Below, in pieces: positions 487 to 7,698 of a DNA stretch of 24,514 nt (positions are counted from its first letter, which is position 1; every line of letters starts with the position of its first letter). This DNA comes from a virus (lineage: Duplodnaviria > Caudoviricetes). The translations under genes and the position numbers were made by a program. The notes under the pieces are model-generated. The model did no database searches and was not told where the DNA came from. It worked only from the letters and a program-made list of their open reading frames with translations. Location of the stretch: positions 1-24,514 of the IMG/VR virus record IMGVR_UViG_3300009095_000071. One strand, written 5' to 3'.

Positions 487-873
487 TTACTTTTGCGGGC
501 GCTTTGGCGCGGCGTTGTTGGTGGCGGCGACGGTTTTAAGCAAGCCGAAGACGGCGGCGATGTCCGCCTCGGGCTCTTCGCCGGCGGCGGGCTTGAGGAC
601 AACGTGGGGCATGTACTTGTCGGGGCTCGCGGCCTTGCCCGTAAAAAAGCTTTCGAGCAGCGCCTGCATGTGGGCGAAGTTCTCCTCCACCCGCAGGCCG
701 AGGTTGAGCAGCCCACGCTGGCGGCGGTAGGCCATCCACACCGCGGCCTCCCGCAGGGTGATGGCGGCCTTGGCCTCGGCGATGGTTCGCCCGCCAATGC
801 CGGCCAGCACCATCTCGCACCAGAAGTCGTCCTCGGGGCTCAGGCCGCCTTGCGTCGCGTCTTCGGCACCACC
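487..873 (-). CDS. Tail assembly chaperone, C-terminal frameshift extension (lambda gpT-like)
   Basis: The frame of ORF 487..813 stays open upstream (…LSPEDDFWCEMVLAGIGGRTIAEAK) to the slippery site at 873-879. It is the -1 frame of the upstream chaperone gene. Confidence 0.85.
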   Translation of the reverse strand, partial: GGAEDATQGGLSPEDDFWCEMVLAGIGGRTIAEAKAAITLREAAVWMAYRRQRGLLNLGLRVEENFAHMQALLESFFTGKAASPDKYMPHVVLKPAAGEEPEADIAAVFGLLKTVAATNNAAPKRPQK

Positions 874-1223
874 TTTCCCCCGCTTTTCCTCACGGTGCCA
901 ATGGCGCCGAAAAACGCCAGCAGCAGGCCGGGCTTGAGCCGGGCGCAGTCGGCCAGTGGCAGCTGATCGACGTCGGCCTTCTCGCCGTTCACGGCGTGAA
1001 TGCGCACCATGCGGTGGATGGTGCGGGCCATCACGCTGCGGTCATCCGCGCCTTGATCCTGCATGTTGATAAACTCGAAGTCGGCGACGGTGGCTTCTTT
1101 CTTCACCGAGATGTCGAATTTCACCGGGTCCGCGCCCTCGGCGGGCGCCCATTCGAATGCGGTTTTTTCAAAGCCTTCCGGCCCTACAAAGGCGCCGATG
1201 CTGCTGAGCAGGTCGTTGATCAT
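840..1223 (-). CDS. Tail assembly chaperone (lambda gpG-like)
   Basis: Lies between the major tail and tape measure genes. GGAGA RBS precedes the ATG at 1223, and G GGA AAG occurs in frame near the 3' end. Confidence 0.85.
   Translation of the reverse strand: MINDLLSSIGAFVGPEGFEKTAFEWAPAEGADPVKFDISVKKEATVADFEFINMQDQGADDRSVMARTIHRMVRIHAVNGEKADVDQLPLADCARLKPGLLLAFFGAIGTVRKSGGKVVPKTRRKAA
873..879 (-). promoter_or_regulatory. -1 programmed ribosomal frameshift slippery site GGGAAAG
   Basis: G-GGA-AAG is in the correct phase and identical to the lambda G/T slippery heptamer. A -1 shift enters the 487..813 frame. Confidence 0.88.
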
Positions 1224-1234
1224 TGGTCTCTCCG

Positions 1235-1260
1235 AAAAAAAAGGCCGCGCGGGCGCGGCC
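1235..1260 (-). terminator. Intrinsic terminator after the major tail gene
   Basis: GGCCGCG/CGCGGCC stem followed by T8 on the minus strand. Confidence 0.7.
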
Positions 1261-1298
1261 ATCAGGTGTGGTAGCAGTTATTCGAGGGGTTATTCAGC

Positions 1299-1775
1299 TC
1301 AGACCTTGGGCACCAGCACCGGCTCGCCGGATACCTGAATGCCCACGGTGGACTGCACCACGGCGTTCTGCGCGAAGCTGAACGGGTAGGAGTTCATAAA
1401 GCCTTCGAGCTCGATCCAGGACCGGGTGGCGGGCAGAACAAACTCGTAGCTGCCATCGCTGTTGGTGTTTACCGTCGGCGCGTCGGTGCCGTCGGAAAAT
1501 CCCACCGCCCAGGGCAAAGTGGTACCGGCCACCTTGAGCTGGTGCAGGCGCACGTGGCTCTCATCGGCGGTGTCCACGTTGATGCCGAAAGACGCCGTGC
1601 CAGGGGTGGCAAGGCCCGCCAAATAGCTGCGGGCGCTGTCGCCGAGGCAGGTTGTCTCGATCTGGTCGATGCTGGTGTCGATGCCGTCGATGCTGGTGAC
1701 GCAGCCCACGGTGATGAGGGTGCCGTCGTCCGGGTCGATGGTGTAGAGGTTGGTGCCTTGGGTTTTGATCGCCAT
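1299..1775 (-). CDS. Major tail (tube) protein
   Basis: MAIKTQGTNLY…IETTCL…YLAGLATPG…VQSTVGIQVSGEP is the pattern of lambdoid/HK97-type tail tube proteins. GGAG RBS precedes the ATG at 1775. Confidence 0.9.
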   Translation of the reverse strand: MAIKTQGTNLYTIDPDDGTLITVGCVTSIDGIDTSIDQIETTCLGDSARSYLAGLATPGTASFGINVDTADESHVRLHQLKVAGTTLPWAVGFSDGTDAPTVNTNSDGSYEFVLPATRSWIELEGFMNSYPFSFAQNAVVQSTVGIQVSGEPVLVPKV

Positions 1776-1839
1776 TGGTCGTATCTCCATGGAGGTTGGT
1801 GGTGTTGCCCGGGCGGGCGTTTTCCTTGCGCAGGAAATG

Positions 1840-1883: not shown

Positions 1884-2456
1884 TTAGCGCGGCGGGCTCG
1901 CCGCTTTCTGCTGGCGCTTGATGGCGCGGTCCAGCGCTTTGCTGTACTCCTTCGCGAACACGTCAACAGGGGCCGTGCCCACCTGGGCCATGACCGGCCG
2001 CATAAAGGGCTGGGGCGGGTTTTTCTCGGTGCCGAATTCCAAAAACCGCCAGTAGTAGGTGTGGCCCCCCGGGTTGCCGGCCCCGGCGCCCTTGATCTCG
2101 CCGAGCTGTTCAAGGGATGCCTGGCCGAGGCGCTTGCGGCGCCGCTCGGTTTTCCGCGCGGCCTTGGCGTCGACGGGGCGGCGGGCACCGCCGAGGATGC
2201 CAACGCGAAACATCAGGTCCCCGGTGCGCTTGAATGCCCGGGGGCTCCAGCGCATCACCAAATTCTTGGCGATCTCTTCCGGGGTTTTGGGGTCGTTCAC
2301 CGATGCCGCATTGGCCCGGGCCTGGGCAAGCACCACGTTGCCCGCTTTTCGCAAAGCCGCGCGGCCACCCTTGAGGCGCATGTCCACCGACAGGGCCTTG
2401 AGCTTTTTGGTGATCTCATCCACGCCCGTCAGGGAATACTCCACGCCGTCTTTCAT
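1884..2456 (-). CDS. HK97 gp10-family tail/neck morphogenesis protein
   Basis: From ATG 2456 (ATGA overlap with the upstream gene): RAALRKAGNVV…YYWRFLEFGTEKNPPQPFMRP signature. The longer N-terminus in the ORF track is a shadow of the neighbouring gene. Confidence 0.9.
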   Translation of the reverse strand: MKDGVEYSLTGVDEITKKLKALSVDMRLKGGRAALRKAGNVVLAQARANAASVNDPKTPEEIAKNLVMRWSPRAFKRTGDLMFRVGILGGARRPVDAKAARKTERRRKRLGQASLEQLGEIKGAGAGNPGGHTYYWRFLEFGTEKNPPQPFMRPVMAQVGTAPVDVFAKEYSKALDRAIKRQQKAASPPR

Positions 2457-2818
2457 CGCCCCACCATCCATTCCACGTCGAAGCTGTAGCGGTAGTGGCC
2501 CGTTTCGCCGTCGCGGGATTCGCCGCCCCACCGGGTCACATGGGCCACCGGCTCGAAGGCATCCCGCAGGGCCTTGGCGGCGGTGCGTGCCGCCGTGGCG
2601 GTGGCGGCGTACACGTCGACCTGGGTGGTGAATTCGTCGAGGTCCGGCACCTGACCGAGGTAGTTCTCGGGGCCGCCGCCCACCACCTGCCACACGGCAT
2701 AGGGCAGCATCACGCCCTGGGGCGCTTCGCCAAAGGGGAACACCCGGCACGGGCTGGTGCCGAGCGCGGCCTTGACGGCGGCGCTGGCAAAGGCGGTGGC
2801 GAAGACAGGCGGCGTCAT
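2453..2818 (-). CDS. Tail terminator / tail completion protein (DUF3168-like)
   Basis: RVFPFGEAPQ…PYAVWQVVGGGPENYL…QVDVYA…YRYSFDVEW. ATGA overlaps at both ends. Confidence 0.85.
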   Translation of the reverse strand: MTPPVFATAFASAAVKAALGTSPCRVFPFGEAPQGVMLPYAVWQVVGGGPENYLGQVPDLDEFTTQVDVYAATATAARTAAKALRDAFEPVAHVTRWGGESRDGETGHYRYSFDVEWMVGR

Positions 2819-3444
2819 CGGCTGGCCACCCGCCGGAAGGCGTAGGAGCCGATGCCCTCCCGGCCCAGCCGGGTCTCGAAGTCGTCATCCGCCACCAGCT
2901 CAAAGCCGTGGCCTTCGAACCAGCTGACGAGGCCCGCGTCGGTCCAGTACCAGAGGTGCTCGCCGGGCTTGTAGTGCTTGCTGGCCAGCAGGTCGTCGAG
3001 GTCGCCGTAGATGGGCATCGACACGAACACCCACTCCCTGGCCCTGGCCACCAGGGCGCCGGGGTCAGGGATATGCTCGAGGCTGTCCCAGCAGGTGATG
3101 GCCAGCACGTTGTCGTGGCGATAGGGGTCGAGGTAGGAGAGCCGATACCTCAGCCAGTCATTGGCCTCGGGGTTCACGTCAAAGCCAAAGCCGCCGGCGC
3201 CGAGGGCGCGCACAAAGCCGCCGCCGCCGATGCCGATGTCGATTACCGGCCCGGTGTAGCAGGCCCGCACAAAATCCACCCGGGCGCGGGTGAGCGCCTC
3301 GCCCATGGGGCTGGCATCCCGGGCGAGGTACTCCGCCCAGTAGCTCTCGGTGTAGGCCATCGGCGGGCGGGTGTGAAACCCCATACCCCGCTCAGGGCTC
3401 CACAGCAGGCAGTCTTCCAAGCCAGTTGGCAACGATCCGGTCAT
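2815..3444 (-). CDS. Class I SAM-dependent methyltransferase
   Basis: Motif I VIDIGIGGGGF, GFDVN, ITCWDSLEHIPDP and HYKPGEHLWYW. This resembles methyltransferases found in glycan biosynthesis loci, and no DNA methyltransferase motif (DPPY/NPPY or motif-IV PC) is visible. Confidence 0.88.
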   Translation of the reverse strand: MTGSLPTGLEDCLLWSPERGMGFHTRPPMAYTESYWAEYLARDASPMGEALTRARVDFVRACYTGPVIDIGIGGGGFVRALGAGGFGFDVNPEANDWLRYRLSYLDPYRHDNVLAITCWDSLEHIPDPGALVARAREWVFVSMPIYGDLDDLLASKHYKPGEHLWYWTDAGLVSWFEGHGFELVADDDFETRLGREGIGSYAFRRVASR

Positions 3445-4237
3445 AGTTCGAAATCCGCTTGTCGCAGTTGTGATTGCGCTGGGTGCAGTGGCAGAACCTG
3501 TCGGGCACCGCGAAGGTGATGCGCGACAGGTCCATGGTGTGGTGGGTGATTTTGTCCGGGGCGTTGTAGCCCCCTTGCCCGCCGCAAATCACCAGGGCAG
3601 GCACCCGGGCGGCGATGCAGGCGGGCACGATCCAGCCAATGCCGCCGATCACGGCGGCGGCCCCCTGGACAAGGGCGAGCAGCTGCGTCACCGACAATTC
3701 GCCCCGGTGGTAGACGATGTCTGCCGGGGGCAGCGGCGCCAGGGCCCACTCCTCACCCGGCGAGAGGTCGGCCACCGATACCAGGGTGTAGCCGGCGGCG
3801 CGGGCGGCGGCAGCCGCGGCGGCCACATAGGCGGGCAGCGGGTTGCGGGCGTCCGCTCGCCACTCGGCCCGCACAGTCACCGGGCGGACCACCACATACC
3901 GCCCGGCCACCGAGCTCGGGCCAAAGGCGGGCAGGTCCATGCTCGCGGGGATAACCCCAAGCGCTCGCTTCATGCCCCGGTAGATGCCATCGGTGCTGTA
4001 GGCCACCCGGCGGCGCACCGCCCCCGTGGGGCGCGGGTGCCATTGCCCCTGCCGGGCGATGTTCTTGGCCTGGGTGCGCAGCGTGGTCTCGGGCTTGACG
4101 CAGCGCACAAAGGGCAGGTCGGCATACAGCTCGGGCCAGGGGGTTTCGAGGCAAAGCTCGCGGCCAATGGCCTTGATGTAGGCCCGCTGGTAGATGTTGT
4201 CGCCAAGGCCCTTCATGCCCTCGATGAGGATAGGCAT
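3392..4237 (-). CDS. GT-B fold glycosyltransferase, GT9 (heptosyltransferase)-like
   Basis: N-terminal GMKGLGDNI motif, GELSVTQLLALVQGAAAVIGGIGWIVPACIAARVPALVICG segment and C-terminal Cys cluster (CHCTQRNHNC). The ATG at 4237 overlaps the upstream stop. Confidence 0.72.
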   Translation of the reverse strand: MPILIEGMKGLGDNIYQRAYIKAIGRELCLETPWPELYADLPFVRCVKPETTLRTQAKNIARQGQWHPRPTGAVRRRVAYSTDGIYRGMKRALGVIPASMDLPAFGPSSVAGRYVVVRPVTVRAEWRADARNPLPAYVAAAAAAARAAGYTLVSVADLSPGEEWALAPLPPADIVYHRGELSVTQLLALVQGAAAVIGGIGWIVPACIAARVPALVICGGQGGYNAPDKITHHTMDLSRITFAVPDRFCHCTQRNHNCDKRISNYDRIVANWLGRLPAVEP

Positions 4238-4593
4238 CAGCGGCCGTCCGTCAGGCCATCGGAACAGCGCAGGCGCCACTCACGGCGGCCGGTGGCGTCG
4301 GTTTCGATGCTGGTGATGTTGTACACCCGGCCATCCCACAGCACGCGCATGGTGGGCATGAGGCCCGGGAACCAGCGCAGGTTGATGCGGGCGGCGGTCT
4401 CCGCCTGTTTGGCACCGGCGGCCAGCAGCTCGCGGCCGGGGCCGGTGAGCACCTCGGCGGGCACCGCGTCCAGCACGGTGCCATCGTCGAGGATCACATC
4501 AACCCAGGTGGTGGTGATCTCGCCGGTGACGGTGTCTTGCACTTGCTGGGGCTCTTGGATGGCCACGCGATGACGCAGTCGGTAGGCGAGCAT
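4237..4593 (-). CDS. Head closure / head-tail adaptor (SPP1 gp16-like)
   Basis: RLRHRVAIQ…TGE…W…VPAEV…GRE…RINLRW…TMRVLWDGRVYNITSI. Confidence 0.9.
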   Translation of the reverse strand: MLAYRLRHRVAIQEPQQVQDTVTGEITTTWVDVILDDGTVLDAVPAEVLTGPGRELLAAGAKQAETAARINLRWFPGLMPTMRVLWDGRVYNITSIETDATGRREWRLRCSDGLTDGR

Positions 4594-4902
4594 TCAGGCC
4601 CCCAGGTTGGCGCGGAAGGGCGCCAGCTTGATCTCCGCCGCTACCCGCAGGGCGGCGGCCTGATCCGGGTCGGCCTGGTAGTTGGCCTGCAACAGCAGCA
4701 GGATGCCAACCACAAGGCTGGCGGGCAGGTCGGGCACGCCGTCGGAGCTGGCGCCGTCGGCGAGCTCCTCGAGGGTGTCGCGGTCGAGGTAGTGCCGGGC
4801 TTCGTCCTCGGCGCCATCCAGCAGCAGCTGGAGCTTGGCGTCGTCCTCGGTGTGGATCACGTCCAGAAACCCCTTGGCGGTTTCCAGCTCGATCAGTGAC
4901 AT
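4594..4902 (-). CDS. Head-tail connector (HK97 gp6 / SPP1 gp15-like)
   Basis: LIELETAKGFLDV…DDAKLQLLLDGAE…YLDR…ILLLLQANY…LAPFR. Confidence 0.9.
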   Translation of the reverse strand: MSLIELETAKGFLDVIHTEDDAKLQLLLDGAEDEARHYLDRDTLEELADGASSDGVPDLPASLVVGILLLLQANYQADPDQAAALRVAAEIKLAPFRANLGA

Positions 4903-5450
4903 AGGGCATCCTCAAGCCGTTGGCGCGGCCAGAATGGCAGCGCCGTGTGGCGGCTGCAGTTGATGATGTGGCAGTGGGCCAGGTGGCCCGCCATCTCGGC
5001 GAATTGGGCCTGCCACTTGGGCAGGCTGGCGGCATTGCCCAGCCCCTTGGGGTGGTTGCCATGCCAGTGGGCTTTGCCGCCGGTGTACTGGCAGTCGTAG
5101 CCCAGAAGGATGATGCGCCGGGCGCCGAAGTGCTCCGCCAGGGACATGGCCCCGGCGCCGGAGTTGCCGCCCTGGCGAAAGATCACGGTTTTTGCACCAG
5201 GCACGTTCTGGGCGCTGGTGAGGCATTCGCCCCGGAAGCCGGCGGCCACCTGGGCTCGGTATTTGTTCCACCACGCCCTGTCCATGGCGTAGAGCGCGTC
5301 GGCCCAGGGGCAGAGCTGAAAGGTGGTGTTGGTTACAACAACGGCTCGCCCGCGGCCTTGGCTGCGCCACGCCCGGGCTTTTTCGCAGTCGTCCGCGGTG
5401 AGGCTGGGGCCGCTGGCGATGCAGACAACGGAGTGCCAGCGGCCTGCGGA
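4893..5450 (-). CDS. Maf/DUF115(MptE)/CstII-like nucleotide-sugar transferase domain, probably expressed by -1 frameshift from the upstream gene
   Basis: The frame is open well upstream of the ATG at 5285 and encodes VVCIASGPSL…VVVTN…ADALYAMD…W…GGNSGAGAMSLAEHFGARRIILLGYD…HWHG…IINCS. There is no ATG/GTG/TTG in this frame between the stop at about 5597 and 5285. Confidence 0.7.
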   Translation of the reverse strand, partial: SAGRWHSVVCIASGPSLTADDCEKARAWRSQGRGRAVVVTNTTFQLCPWADALYAMDRAWWNKYRAQVAAGFRGECLTSAQNVPGAKTVIFRQGGNSGAGAMSLAEHFGARRIILLGYDCQYTGGKAHWHGNHPKGLGNAASLPKWQAQFAEMAGHLAHCHIINCSRHTALPFWPRQRLEDALCH

Positions 5451-5584
5451 GGGCGATCGTCGATGATGCGAACGAGGCCACGGGTAGCCAGGTCTCGGGC
5501 CACGGGCTCGGAGACGGTAAAACGGTTGAACCGGCGGCGGGCGCCGCCGTGCTCGAAACTCTGCAGTGCTTCCACTAGGGGCAT
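5333..5584 (-). CDS. Small putative head-associated protein with a Ser/Thr/Pro/Ala-rich tail
   Basis: Strong AAGGAG RBS, directly after the major capsid gene. About 42 aa of compact N-terminal domain are followed by a low-complexity tail. Confidence 0.75.
   Translation of the reverse strand: MPLVEALQSFEHGGARRRFNRFTVSEPVARDLATRGLVRIIDDRPPQAAGTPLSASPAAPASPRTTAKKPGRGAAKAAGEPLL
5388..5455 (-). promoter_or_regulatory. Candidate -1 frameshift signal: C-CCT plus 10-bp stem and possible H-type pseudoknot
   Basis: GGCCGCTGGC (5444-5435) pairs perfectly with GCCAGCGGCC (5417-5408), starting 5 nt after the CCT codon (5452-5450). Loop GUUGUCUGC (5429-5421) can pair with GCGGACGAC (5396-5388). Confidence 0.55.
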
Positions 5585-5596
5585 GGAGTGCTCCTT

Positions 5597-5629: not shown

Positions 5630-6838
5630 TCAGGCGCCGGAGGAGGTGATGGTGAAGTCGCCCTTCACAAACGCCTCGGGGCGGTACACGGTGAGGGCAA
5701 CACGCTCTTCACAGAGGATGGTGACCATGTTCTTGATGAAGTTGTCGCGGTCCTCGGTGCTGACGGTGACGGTGGCATCTTCGCGGTCCCAGCCCTGGGC
5801 ACCCATGCGGAAGGCGCCGGTGAGGAAGTCACCCGCGTCCATCGACTGAGTGGCCACCACCGGCAGGCCCCACAGCACAGGGCCAGCCAGCTGGACAGGG
5901 TTGGCGAAGATGTAGCGGCCCTGGGTGTCCTTGGTCAGCTCGATGGCGGCCCAGTCGATCGGGCTGAGCACGATGCCGTCGGCGGTGTACTCGGCCAGTT
6001 GCACCTGGAGCATCGCCAGCCGCAGGCGGTCGATGATGGTGTCCTGATCCACCGATACGCCCGGGTTCGCGTAGCTCGACGCCTGGGTGTAGATGCCGTT
6101 GATGTTGAGGCCAACGCCGGAGCCCTTGAGCAGCTGCGCCTCTTCCTTGAGCTTGAGGCCGTAGCGCAGGCGACCGTCGATGTAGCTTTGCAGCATGGCC
6201 GCGTCGGACAGCACCTGCTTGGACGCCTGGAGCCAGTGGGCGATGGTGGCGACGTGGGCAGAGGCCAGGTCGAACACCAGGGAGGATTCCGGCTTGCCGT
6301 CGCTGGGGTTCTCCGACACAACATCGGCGCCGTTGGTGAAGCCGGTCTCCTTGACGTACTCCACCGCGTTGGAGCCAGTGCGACCCCAGTTGAGCAGGTC
6401 GCGGATGAACAGCCGGCGCTCAGGGGTGGCAACCACGCCAGGAACGCGGGTGGGCTCGATGAGGTCACCAGCGCTGGCGGCGTCGGAGGTGAGGGCCGCC
6501 TGAACCGGCACGGTGAACGAGCCCTTGGAGCGGGCCAGGGTGGCGGCGCGGGCCTGGAACTCGTCCGACTCGGTGACGATCTGGCCCATGGTTTTGGGGC
6601 GGGCGCTGTGGCCACCGCCGGATTCCAGCCGGGCGATGACTTGCTCGACGGCTTGGAGGTTGGCTTGCAGCTCGCCCTGCTTGACCAACAGCTCGTCGAC
6701 CTTGGCCTTGGTCTCTTCGCTCATGGACTGGTGGCGCTTGATATCGGCCTGGGCCTGCTCGGCGTAGGCTTTCAGGTCGTCACCGACCTTTTTGAGATCC
6801 GCCTGGACCTGCTTGTATTCCTGTTCGATCTGGGACAT
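5630..6838 (-). CDS. Major capsid protein, HK97 family
   Basis: Coiled-coil delta domain, then RLFIRDLL…YVKETGF…KPES…TIAHWLQASKQVLSD…F.KNMVTILCEERVAL.VYRPEAFVKG. Confidence 0.97.
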   Translation of the reverse strand: MSQIEQEYKQVQADLKKVGDDLKAYAEQAQADIKRHQSMSEETKAKVDELLVKQGELQANLQAVEQVIARLESGGGHSARPKTMGQIVTESDEFQARAATLARSKGSFTVPVQAALTSDAASAGDLIEPTRVPGVVATPERRLFIRDLLNWGRTGSNAVEYVKETGFTNGADVVSENPSDGKPESSLVFDLASAHVATIAHWLQASKQVLSDAAMLQSYIDGRLRYGLKLKEEAQLLKGSGVGLNINGIYTQASSYANPGVSVDQDTIIDRLRLAMLQVQLAEYTADGIVLSPIDWAAIELTKDTQGRYIFANPVQLAGPVLWGLPVVATQSMDAGDFLTGAFRMGAQGWDREDATVTVSTEDRDNFIKNMVTILCEERVALTVYRPEAFVKGDFTITSSGA

Positions 6839-6843
6839 GGGTG

Positions 6844-7698
6844 TTACCTCAACGGTGAGAAAGGGGATTGAAGGCGGGGCAGTGGCCCCAGGGTTGCTAC
6901 CGCATCGCGCGGGTTGCCGGCGGGATCGCCCTCGCCGTTGCCAGCCGCGTCGCGCAGGCTGGACTTGAAATCAGAGATCAGCTTCATCGCCTCGGATCGG
7001 GGCAAGCCGGAGGCCCGCAGGGCGGCCTCGATGCGGCGCACGCTGGCGGCGCTGGCCCGCTCGCCACCCTCGCCGATCTGGTCGGAGGGCAGCAGGGCGT
7101 CGGCAAAGCCCCGGGCCACGGCATCGCTGCCGCCGATCCAAGTCTCGGCGTCCATCAGGGCGGCCATGTCGTCCAGGCTGTCGCCAGTGCGGGCGGCGTA
7201 GATGTCGGCCATGGCGGCGTCGAAGGGCTCGAGGTAGTCGGCCACGCCACGGAGTTCGTTGCGGTTGCCGGCGGCGATCACCCAGGCGTTGTGGATCATC
7301 AGAAAGCCGGCCCGGGGCACCTGCACCTCGTCGCCCGCCATGGCGATGATGGAGGCGGCAGAGGCGGCGAGGCCCAGCACCTTGACGGTGACTTCGCCCG
7401 GGTGCTCCCGAAGCAGGTTGTAAATGGCCAGGCCCTCGAACATGTCGCCACCGGGGCTGTTGATGTTGACGGTGACGGGGCCCTTGCCGAGGCTGCGCAG
7501 GGCGCCGGCAATGCGCTTGCTGGTGACGCCCTCGCCGGTCCACCAGTCCTGGCCGATCACGTCCAGGACGGAGATGGTGCGATCGTCCTCGGCGGCGGCC
7601 TGGATGCCGGCGTCCCAGCGGCTGAGGGCCTTGGGGGACAGGCGGCTTTGCACGTCGAGGCGATTGGCCGGGGCGGCGGGGAGGTGCTTGATGGTCAT
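6844..7698 (-). CDS. ClpP-type (S14) prohead maturation protease
   Basis: VNINSPGGDMFEG, GLAASAASIIAMAG, LMIHNAW, MDAETW. Confidence 0.95.
   Translation of the reverse strand: MTIKHLPAAPANRLDVQSRLSPKALSRWDAGIQAAAEDDRTISVLDVIGQDWWTGEGVTSKRIAGALRSLGKGPVTVNINSPGGDMFEGLAIYNLLREHPGEVTVKVLGLAASAASIIAMAGDEVQVPRAGFLMIHNAWVIAAGNRNELRGVADYLEPFDAAMADIYAARTGDSLDDMAALMDAETWIGGSDAVARGFADALLPSDQIGEGGERASAASVRRIEAALRASGLPRSEAMKLISDFKSSLRDAAGNGEGDPAGNPRDAVATLGPLPRLQSPFSPLR

Follow-up and report, generated by a model that had tools for sequence, protein, structure and literature searches.

The locus and its two reading frames

The window, i.e., the whole stretch of 24,514 nucleotides (nt) that was analysed (positions 1 to 24,514 of the virus record IMGVR_UViG_3300009095_000071, Caudoviricetes), carries on its minus strand a D3/HK97-like prophage morphogenesis operon. 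The present analysis concerns the junction that follows the major capsid protein gene of this operon (6838..5633). A small open reading frame (ORF) of 83 amino acids (aa) overlaps there with a transferase frame devoid of a start codon, and a programmed -1 ribosomal frameshift is predicted between them. All features of the window described below are on the minus strand.

The 83-aa ORF (P0002, 5333..5584 including the stop) is located directly after the capsid gene. It is read in the 0 frame from ATG 5584 to the stop at 5335-5333 and is composed of a 45-aa folded domain and a 38-aa low-complexity tail. Its Shine-Dalgarno AAGGAG (5591..5596), as read from the sequence, is 6 nt before the ATG. Between the capsid stop and this Shine-Dalgarno is found a terminator-like hairpin (5623-5597; CCGGGGGGC-UUCG-GCCCCCCGG, then C and UUUU), which might lower the expression of all genes located 3' of the capsid gene.

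The transferase frame is the -1 frame of the 83-aa ORF. It is preceded by TAA 5597-5595, is open from 5594 to 4896 and has, in the window, no ATG, GTG or TTG upstream of ATG 5285. This first ATG (5283..5285) encodes a Met within the conserved AMDRAWW. The VVCIASGPSL motif is 48 codons further upstream, and gene callers starting at ATG 5285 drop about 50 conserved residues; the called P0004 and eight relatives begin at MD[RK]xWW. With a -1 shift, the transferase coding would extend over 4893..5453, from CCC 5453-5451 to the stop 4895-4893. The products predicted from the window are thus 83 aa and 230 aa (45 + 185), the longer one being M1-P45, then SAGRWHSVVC... up to that stop. A first-pass annotation of the sequence had pointed out the start-less frame, its -1 relation to the small gene, the strong ribosome-binding site, the slip region and the pairing of two stems, with products of 83 aa and about 230 aa. 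All these coordinates are correct, and the lengths deduced from the sequence are indeed 83 and 230 aa.

The frame offset in related loci

The homolog search gave 1103 proteins, and 114 related loci, with 96 distinct junctions, were analysed per junction by script. According to their N-termini the homologs are of three classes: (i) proteins that start at a Met of their own, some 13 residues ahead of the motif; (ii) proteins called only from MD[RK]xWW, i.e., truncated like that of the window; (iii) longer proteins that begin like the 83-aa ORF (residues 1-45), i.e., in-frame fusions.

In 81 of the 96 distinct junctions the transferase is found in the -1 frame of a small ORF, so that the frame offset, whose conservation among homologous loci had been proposed as a check, is conserved. 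In these 81 junctions the small ORF has about 80-97 aa, with its start 158-300 nt ahead of the motif and its end 70-118 nt beyond it; in 77 of them it is the same small ORF, with a tail of 34-50 aa after the slip codon. In 60 of the 81 no start codon precedes the motif in the transferase frame, in 20 the sole start is upstream of the slip site, and one junction has a GTG 3 codons before the motif. The offset is found at the same codon in the 81 junctions, down to about 45-50% protein identity, and the -1 frame is open and conserved throughout. A capsid-sized ORF ends at most 200 nt upstream in 64 related loci. The named hosts belong to several families of Pseudomonadota, and a scan of viral contigs gives at least 572 confirmed relatives.

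The stretch is also present in contigs from three other metagenome studies, which differ by 5, 9 and a few substitutions, respectively, and have 0 gaps. One variant shared by contigs, 5448 G>T (plus strand), leaves the residue of the -1 frame unchanged (TCC to TCA) but replaces Pro by Gln in the 0 frame. Since three independent assemblies carry the stretch without indels, an assembly error is excluded.

In the chromosome of Neopusillimonas aromaticivorans (L020, about 2840-3004) the N-terminal domain is split between two frames, besides the usual offset. This locus looks like a decaying copy or a sequencing error.

The predicted slip site

The predicted -1 slip site is C_CCU (5450..5453), i.e., the last base of CGC plus the Pro-45 codon CCT, in the slip region CGC-CCT-CCG (5455-5447). 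In a 4-codon window aligned on the motif, an in-register C_CCN is present in 76 of the 81 junctions, vs. 37 of 3936 codons (0.94%) elsewhere in the same ORFs. The codon before CCN is variable (GAC, ATC, GTC, AAC, CAC, CGC, GCC and others) and its final base is always C. A canonical X_XXY_YYZ heptamer is present at the slip place in 41 of the 81 junctions: CCCAAAG (17), CCCTTTG (5), CCCCCCG (3), AAACCCT (3), AAAAAAG (2), AAAGGGC (1), GGGAAAG (1) and others. The five junctions that lack C_CCN all have a heptamer. A slippery motif, i.e., in-register C_CCN or a heptamer, is thus found at the same place in 81 of 81 junctions, in agreement with the conservation of C-CCN that the first-pass annotation had proposed to look for. 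Outside the heptamers, the N of C_CCN is T (29), C (18), G (1) or A (1); CCA at the slip site is found in 17 of 18 cases as C_CCA_AAG.

In the study of Sharma et al. (2014, PMC4066793), the tetramers followed by a pseudoknot rank in Escherichia coli as A_AAG >> U_UUC > U_UUU > C_CCU = C_CCC > A_AAA, with values of 0.26-5.6%. C_CCA and C_CCG are barely above background and the best heptamer is C_CCA_AAG (54%). The choice of N across the junctions matches this measured hierarchy. The same data answer a caveat attached to the earlier proposal, namely that the site of the window is not a canonical heptamer, since C_CCU and C_CCC tetramers are shift-prone in E. coli before a pseudoknot.

The position of the shift can be delimited from the stops: the -1-frame stop directly abuts CCC in 6 junctions and is at most 3 codons away in 13 more, and GRW follows 3-4 codons later. 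The shift is thus pinned to the CCC codon and not to a position further upstream.

No Shine-Dalgarno-like stimulator is found upstream of the slip site in the window. Among the related loci, 26 of 76 junctions have a Shine-Dalgarno-like core (GGAG, GAGG or AGGA) at a distance of 4-20 nt on the upstream side of the slip site, vs. 5.4 expected from other windows of the same ORFs. In some lineages these cores may act as a stimulator from upstream, or they may simply result from Glu/Asp codons.

Downstream stems and synonymous constraint

Stem 1 starts 5 nt after the slip tetramer. Its 5' arm GGCCGCUGGC (5435..5444) encodes GRW in the -1 frame, its 3' arm GCCAGCGGCC (5408..5417) encodes the ASG of the motif, and both arms form a perfect helix of 10 base pairs (bp). 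A putative stem 2 is formed by GUUGUCUGC (5421..5429), located inside the stem-1 loop in the VVC codons, and by GCGGACGAC (5388..5396), located in the ADD codons; with stem 1 an H-type pseudoknot is possible. Stem 2 has 9 bp in the window, two of them G-U, and is a perfect 9 bp in the consensus of 79 sequences. Over these 79 aligned sequences, 81% of the cells are paired in stem 1 and 78% in stem 2. With both stems, 79.7% of the cells are paired, vs. 28-59% with the partners slid. The covariation score is 0.125 vs. 0.101 for shuffled alignments, and 0 of 500 shuffles reach it.

Frameshift junctions differ from the others with respect to stem 1. The mean number of pairs (out of 10) is 8.2 in 77 frameshift junctions vs. 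5.9 in 14 others, and stem 1 is part of the minimum free energy (MFE) fold in 44 of 77 frameshift junctions vs. 2 of 15 others. For the 40 junctions having only the tetramer, the mean is 8.9 pairs of 10 and the spacer is of 5 nt in 38 of 40. It is about 7 in the 17 CCCAAAG junctions, 5 in the AAAAAAG ones and 3 in GGGAAAG. These values appear as expected for a trade-off between the strength of the motif and that of the stimulator, the CCCAAAG set being largely one clade. The stem put forward by the first-pass annotation is thus kept at the tetramer-only sites; the covariation, which it had also proposed to look for, is modest.

Synonymous choice is nearly frozen in the -1-frame codons 1-26 after the slip: CCC 69/69, GTC 0.96 and TGC 0.90 (both in the 5' arm of stem 2), as well as CTC 0.89, AGC 0.80, GAC 0.89 and GTC 0.92. 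Downstream, the 4- and 6-fold codons relax to 1.4-2.5 bits, and they do so before the 0-frame ORF ends. The non-frameshift loci are without this bias. GAC in the 3' arm of stem 2 is used in 0.89 of the frameshift loci vs. 6 of 15 others. TCN serine codons are present at the 3' arm of stem 1 in the three nearest own-start loci (L039, L003 and L051) and in the in-frame fusion L118. Moreover, the core 5382-5441 is the only part that matches (at least 90% identity over about 45-60 nt) in several otherwise unlike contigs, from other organisms, of four metagenome runs, and in those runs it gives a depth spike with loose ends on both sides. Judged from these matches, the nucleotide sequence of the core is much more conserved than that of the remainder of the gene.

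An extended hairpin, i.e., stem 2 on a longer outer helix, was considered from the 86-nt folds of L050, L001 and L091. It is not preferred, because stem 2 reaches at least 6 pairs in the MFE fold of only 7 of 77 sequences. Stem 1 is a likely stimulator; a pseudoknot with the putative stem 2 is plausible but unproven.

The shared N-terminal domain

Codons 1-45 (5450..5584) encode a conserved N-terminal domain (N-domain) common to both predicted products, for which a fold like that of the C-terminal domain of gpFI is predicted. The 83-aa ORF matches phrog_7993 (E 2.5e-7) and has no match in Pfam or NCBIfam. The 76 distinct N-domain homologs share the pattern SFDHGG..R..G..F.VS...A..L...GLV. The AlphaFold model of the N-domain, with a predicted local distance difference test (pLDDT) of 90, consists of short strands and one helix. 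Its best matches among 48,161 PDB representatives have Z values of 5-7 and are GINS B-domains, the N-domain of ribosomal protein L9, the C-domain of lambda gpFI (2lsm) and the prophage protein YqbF. For 2lsm, Z is 5.8, a level common for small domains, with a root-mean-square deviation of 0.9 A and 29% identity over 41 aligned residues. With the sequence profile of the N-domain, 2lsm is the sole PDB match and is weak (E 0.37); hhalign of the N-domain vs. lambda FI gives a probability of 58% and E 1e-4 over FI residues 109-131. The N-domain fold is common in small uncharacterised phage proteins, some of which are labelled DUF7210. In its model, the shared domain appears to resemble the C-terminal domain of lambda gpFI, with a weak support from the sequences.

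In lambda the order is E-FI-FII, FI being directly after the capsid gene E. According to a 2026 review (PMC13595911), gpFI links the capsid with the terminase-DNA complex and can be bypassed by mutations of the capsid and of the terminase. By analogy, a capsid-directed role of the shared N-domain can reasonably be inferred.

The transferase domain

The transferase of the window matches phrog_4603 («alpha-2,3-sialyltransferase») with E 9.4e-57 over residues 59-232. The score for Pfam PF01973 (MptE-like) is 24 bits over residues 128-172, i.e., below the gathering cut-off of 34.6 bits; some homologs carry a precomputed PF01973 match. No NCBIfam match is found. An in-frame homolog, P0063, 46% identical to the protein of the window, was modelled (pLDDT 92.8). 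Its fold matches have a probability of 1.00 and template modelling (TM) scores of about 0.45-0.52. The large domain is matched by the Maf glycosyltransferase 5mu5 (E 1.8e-4, TM 0.51) and CstII 1ro8 (TM 0.52), and the other matches are CstII 1ro7, Cst-I 2p2v, the Pasteurella sialyltransferase 9c08 and the archaeal MptE kinase 8sd5. Since the P0063 model matches these structures, the enzyme is predicted to have the Maf/GT42/MptE fold. The motifs HWHGDHP and NSGAGA are invariant in the transferase homologs. An MptE-type kinase activity may be the alternative chemistry of the window's enzyme.

Five homologs (P0026, P0035, P0039, P0050 and P0060) have 354-361 aa, and P0026, P0050 and P0060 carry precomputed methyltransferase Pfam domains (PF13649, PF08241 or PF08242). 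The latter three look like methyltransferase-transferase fusions, i.e., another way in which the enzyme has been joined to partners.

In-frame fusions and own-start forms as natural controls

The predicted product (..RDxP followed by xxGRW..VVC) aligns colinearly with nine in-frame fusion proteins, which correspond to the 83-aa ORF up to ..RP and to the -1 frame from ..GRW. The DNA of one of them (L118, 100% identical to P0095) encodes ..RDRPRDGRWDTVVCIASGP with the codons CGA CCG ... GGT AGA TGG ... GTG GTA TGT ATC GCC TCC GGG. In this fusion, the one read as DNA, the amino acids are kept but the slip site and the stems are not: there is no C_CCN, and stems 1 and 2 have only 6/10 and 6/9 pairs. 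Its frameshifted relatives at 50% identity have GTC CCT TTC (C_CCU_UUC; L119) and GTC CCT CTC (C_CCU; L120).

A hidden Markov model (HMM) of the N-domain matches 99 of 115 sequences. By this HMM the domain is absent from every own-ATG locus (L039, L003, L051, L023, L024, L025, L028, L029 and L032), in which the ATG is about 14 codons before the motif. The N-domain is thus always frameshift-linked or fused and never free-standing beside a normally initiated transferase. According to a FastTree tree built on the transferase domain (deep support weak, root unknown), 84 of the 105 rows of the large clade are frameshift forms, and one own-start clade and at least 3-4 fusion lineages are found among them (fewest label changes, 11). 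In-frame fusions and homologs with a normal start, which the first-pass annotation regarded as outcomes contrary to a frameshift, do exist, but they are separate lineages and the normal-start ones lack the upstream domain.

Proposed frameshift and alternative explanations

On the basis of these sequence comparisons, it is very probable that the 83-aa gene and the start-less transferase frame constitute one programmed -1 ribosomal frameshift cassette. Most ribosomes would stay in frame and give the 83-aa protein, the major species; a minority would slip back by one base at C_CCU (5453-5450) and give the 230-aa fusion, i.e., the first 45 residues plus the Maf/CstII-like transferase. The tRNA-Pro on CCU would re-pair on CCC, the ribosome being stalled by the stem located 5 nt downstream, possibly in the form of a pseudoknot. 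The shared 45-aa domain would bring the enzyme to the procapsid or capsid, and the enzyme would transfer a sugar, perhaps sialic-acid-like, to a virion protein. Because the C_CCY values published for E. coli with a pseudoknot are within 0.26-5.6% (PMC4066793), the efficiency in the window is expected to be low and the enzyme a minor product.

A more precise function can be imagined for the cassette, although it is rather doubtful. It would be a stoichiometry device for virion glycosylation, with a gpFI-like protein for head binding or packaging as its 0-frame product; the rare fusion would put, by means of that same head-binding domain, a few sialic-acid-type sugar transferases on each procapsid. 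D3-like phages of Gram-negative bacteria would in this way glycosylate their own heads, with a dose set by the strength of the slip site (C_CCY tetramer or C_CCA_AAG, according to the lineage).

Several points weigh against the frameshift or against its stimulator. As C_CCU alone is a weak site, little of the enzyme would be made. The 81 junctions include many that are mutually related, and their counts are not counts of independent events. The clade with C_CCA_AAG has a weak stem 1, which would begin as close as about 2-3 nt behind the heptamer. Both stems are in codons of conserved residues (GRW, VVC, ASG and ADD), and protein constraint could explain much of the pairing. The control with slid partners is biased, since the structure comes from one of the sequences in the alignment. 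Two-sided changes are observed in only 8 of 19 pairs vs. 4.9 expected, and 34 of 500 shuffles reach that number. RNAalifold on the 79-sequence alignment gave 3 pairs and neither stem; stems 1 and 2 are mutually exclusive in a nested fold. Lastly, the fold of the window itself (-29.8 kcal/mol, z = -1.77) is equalled by 8 of 200 shuffles. This fold alone is unremarkable; the significance lies in the comparison with related loci.

Other explanations of the overlap can be weighed with the same data. The transferase could be translated independently, from the ATC before ASG, by coupled restart or from ATG 5285 (130 aa), the overlap then being only tight packing. In 60 of the 76 distinct sequences ASG is preceded by ATC or ATT, both of them start codons of rare use, and this also speaks against the frameshift, but the other 16 have CTC, TGC, GTT or GTC at this position, and no Shine-Dalgarno motif is seen in the bases before ATC. 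Gene callers and GenBank records do annotate truncated or TTG-started proteins. In 13 junctions of the C_CCA_AAG (P. aeruginosa-type) clade a TTG or GTG, again to the detriment of the frameshift, is located 20 codons before the motif and is the NCBI start for P0024, so that in this clade independent initiation may well occur. A start at ATC or at ATG 5285 would, however, lose the conserved GRW..VVC or the whole VVCIASGPSL...NTT...PWAD block. An independent start also leaves unexplained the conservation of C_CCN or heptamer, the stops abutting CCC and the lack of the N-domain in own-start homologs. Independent translation is thus considered quite improbable.

It is very improbable that the base is added in the C run by slippage of RNA polymerase, so that a fraction of the mRNAs would encode the fusion in frame. 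For transcriptional slippage to be productive, runs much longer than that of the window, which has three C only, are generally needed, even if the slip sites of the family consist of short homopolymers (from CCC up to CCCCCCC; AAAAAAA in both L079 and L089). Typical signatures of slippage by the ribosome are, on the other hand, the need for register, the X_XXY_YYZ grammar, a structure located 5 nt downstream and the fact that C_CCY is preferred to C_CCR. In addition, the contigs of run X11 (labelled RNA-Seq, probably DNA) are without indel, a weak argument since contigs drop rare variants. The idea that the locus is a broken in-frame fusion, i.e., a pseudogene or recent indel with only the 83-aa protein made, would agree with the in-frame fusions of other lineages and with the extra frame break and decayed look of the N-domain in L020. 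Except in this L020, no stop or indel is seen in the transferase frame of the frameshift loci. The offset is kept at the same codon in 81 distinct junctions with the -1 frame open and conserved, three independent assemblies agree on the stretch, and frameshift forms fill most of the large clade with fusions at no fewer than 3-4 places (in the FastTree tree, with its weak deep support and unknown root). The chance that the locus is such a relic is accordingly very slight indeed.

Comparison with known systems

The predicted cassette has the organization of the -1 cassettes of IS3/IS911 and dnaX (Sharma et al., 2014, PMC4066793), i.e., overlapping ORFs, the second one in the -1 frame and without start, and products sharing their N-terminus. 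These known cassettes combine a Z_ZZN tetramer or X_XXZ_ZZN heptamer with a hairpin or pseudoknot further downstream; in the present family an in-register C_CCY tetramer or C_CCA_AAG/A_AAA_AAG heptamer is followed, 5 nt downstream, by a GC-rich stem as the putative stimulator. The partners differ: here they are a phage head-module protein and a transferase, and not a transposase or a polymerase subunit, and the window is without upstream Shine-Dalgarno-like stimulator. As in the lambda-type tail chaperone G/GT, a conserved -1 shift in a phage structural operon would give a short major and a longer minor product. That the operon of the window also has a G/GT site of its own (G_GGA_AAG, 879-873) counts in favour of the proposed cassette. 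The present one is located between capsid and head-tail connector genes, whereas G/GT is between tail tube and tape measure genes; furthermore its extension is an enzyme fold and not a chaperone domain, and its site is mostly a tetramer.

A capsid-gene frameshift is that of T7 gene 10A/10B. The junction described here is comparable to the capsid frameshifts of T7 10A/10B and of Lactobacillus phage A2 in that a head-module -1 shift would add a C-terminal extension to a fraction of the molecules. Unlike in T7 and A2, the gene that shifts is not that of the capsid protein but a small accessory one behind it, and what would be appended is a predicted transferase. The frameshift of the A2 major head protein is in the reference list of the review of Atkins et al. 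(2016, PMC5009743).

With respect to lambda gpFI, the gene position is the same (in the window: capsid, small ORF, connector), and both proteins have one small folded domain and a probably unstructured part. The order is reversed, the folded domain being first here, and gpFI has neither frameshift nor enzyme. Maf, GT42 (CstII, Cst-I) and PF01973 share their fold with the family through the P0063 model, and the domain of the window has in addition its phrog_4603 match; unlike Maf, this domain is much smaller (about 180 aa), and its PF01973 score is below the cut-off.

Annotation status and significance

No frameshift is marked at this junction in the three phage records inspected (D3, phPA-G and PAJU2). 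The D3 record has orf6.5 and a truncated orf7 as separate genes, and that of phPA-G only a truncated «sialyltransferase». No paper or annotation describing this frameshift was found in the literature searches; in the examined text of the Atkins review (PMC5009743), phage D3, major capsid, sialyltransferase and glycosyltransferase are all absent. The mechanism is of a known kind; what is new is the gene family, the natural series of tetramers, heptamers and fusions, and the gpFI-like link.

In PAJU2 the own-start homolog ORF010 (L117, AP009624.1 7780-8349) has received from its depositors the unverified label «structural protein». If this label rests on virion protein data, a member of the family would be in the particle.

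Current annotations split or truncate the gene, and about 50 conserved residues of the enzyme as well as its link with the head module are missing from databases. Recognising the frameshift would give the correct protein for a family present in hundreds of prophages and viral contigs. The natural series of C_CCY tetramers, heptamers and fusions would be useful for the study of the trade-off between slip-site and stimulator strength. With a defined enzyme and a defined putative targeting domain, the glycosylation of particles by tailed phages of Gram-negative bacteria becomes testable.

Neighbouring genes

Upstream of the capsid gene, the operon includes a ClpP-like protease (7698..6847). After the transferase come a gp6-like head-tail connector (4902..4597) and a head completion protein (4593..4240). 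The next two ORFs, located between the head completion and tail completion genes, are an ORF of 295 aa (4279..3395), for which no Pfam or NCBIfam match is found, and an S-adenosylmethionine methyltransferase (3444..2818; PF13489, E 6e-11). They are followed by a tail completion protein (2818..2456) and the tail tube protein (1790..1302). The ORF of 140 aa after the tail tube gene (1262..840) contains at its codon 128 an in-register G_GGA_AAG (879-873), i.e., a tail assembly chaperone frameshift site of the canonical lambda type, beyond which the -1 frame stays open for about 125 further codons.

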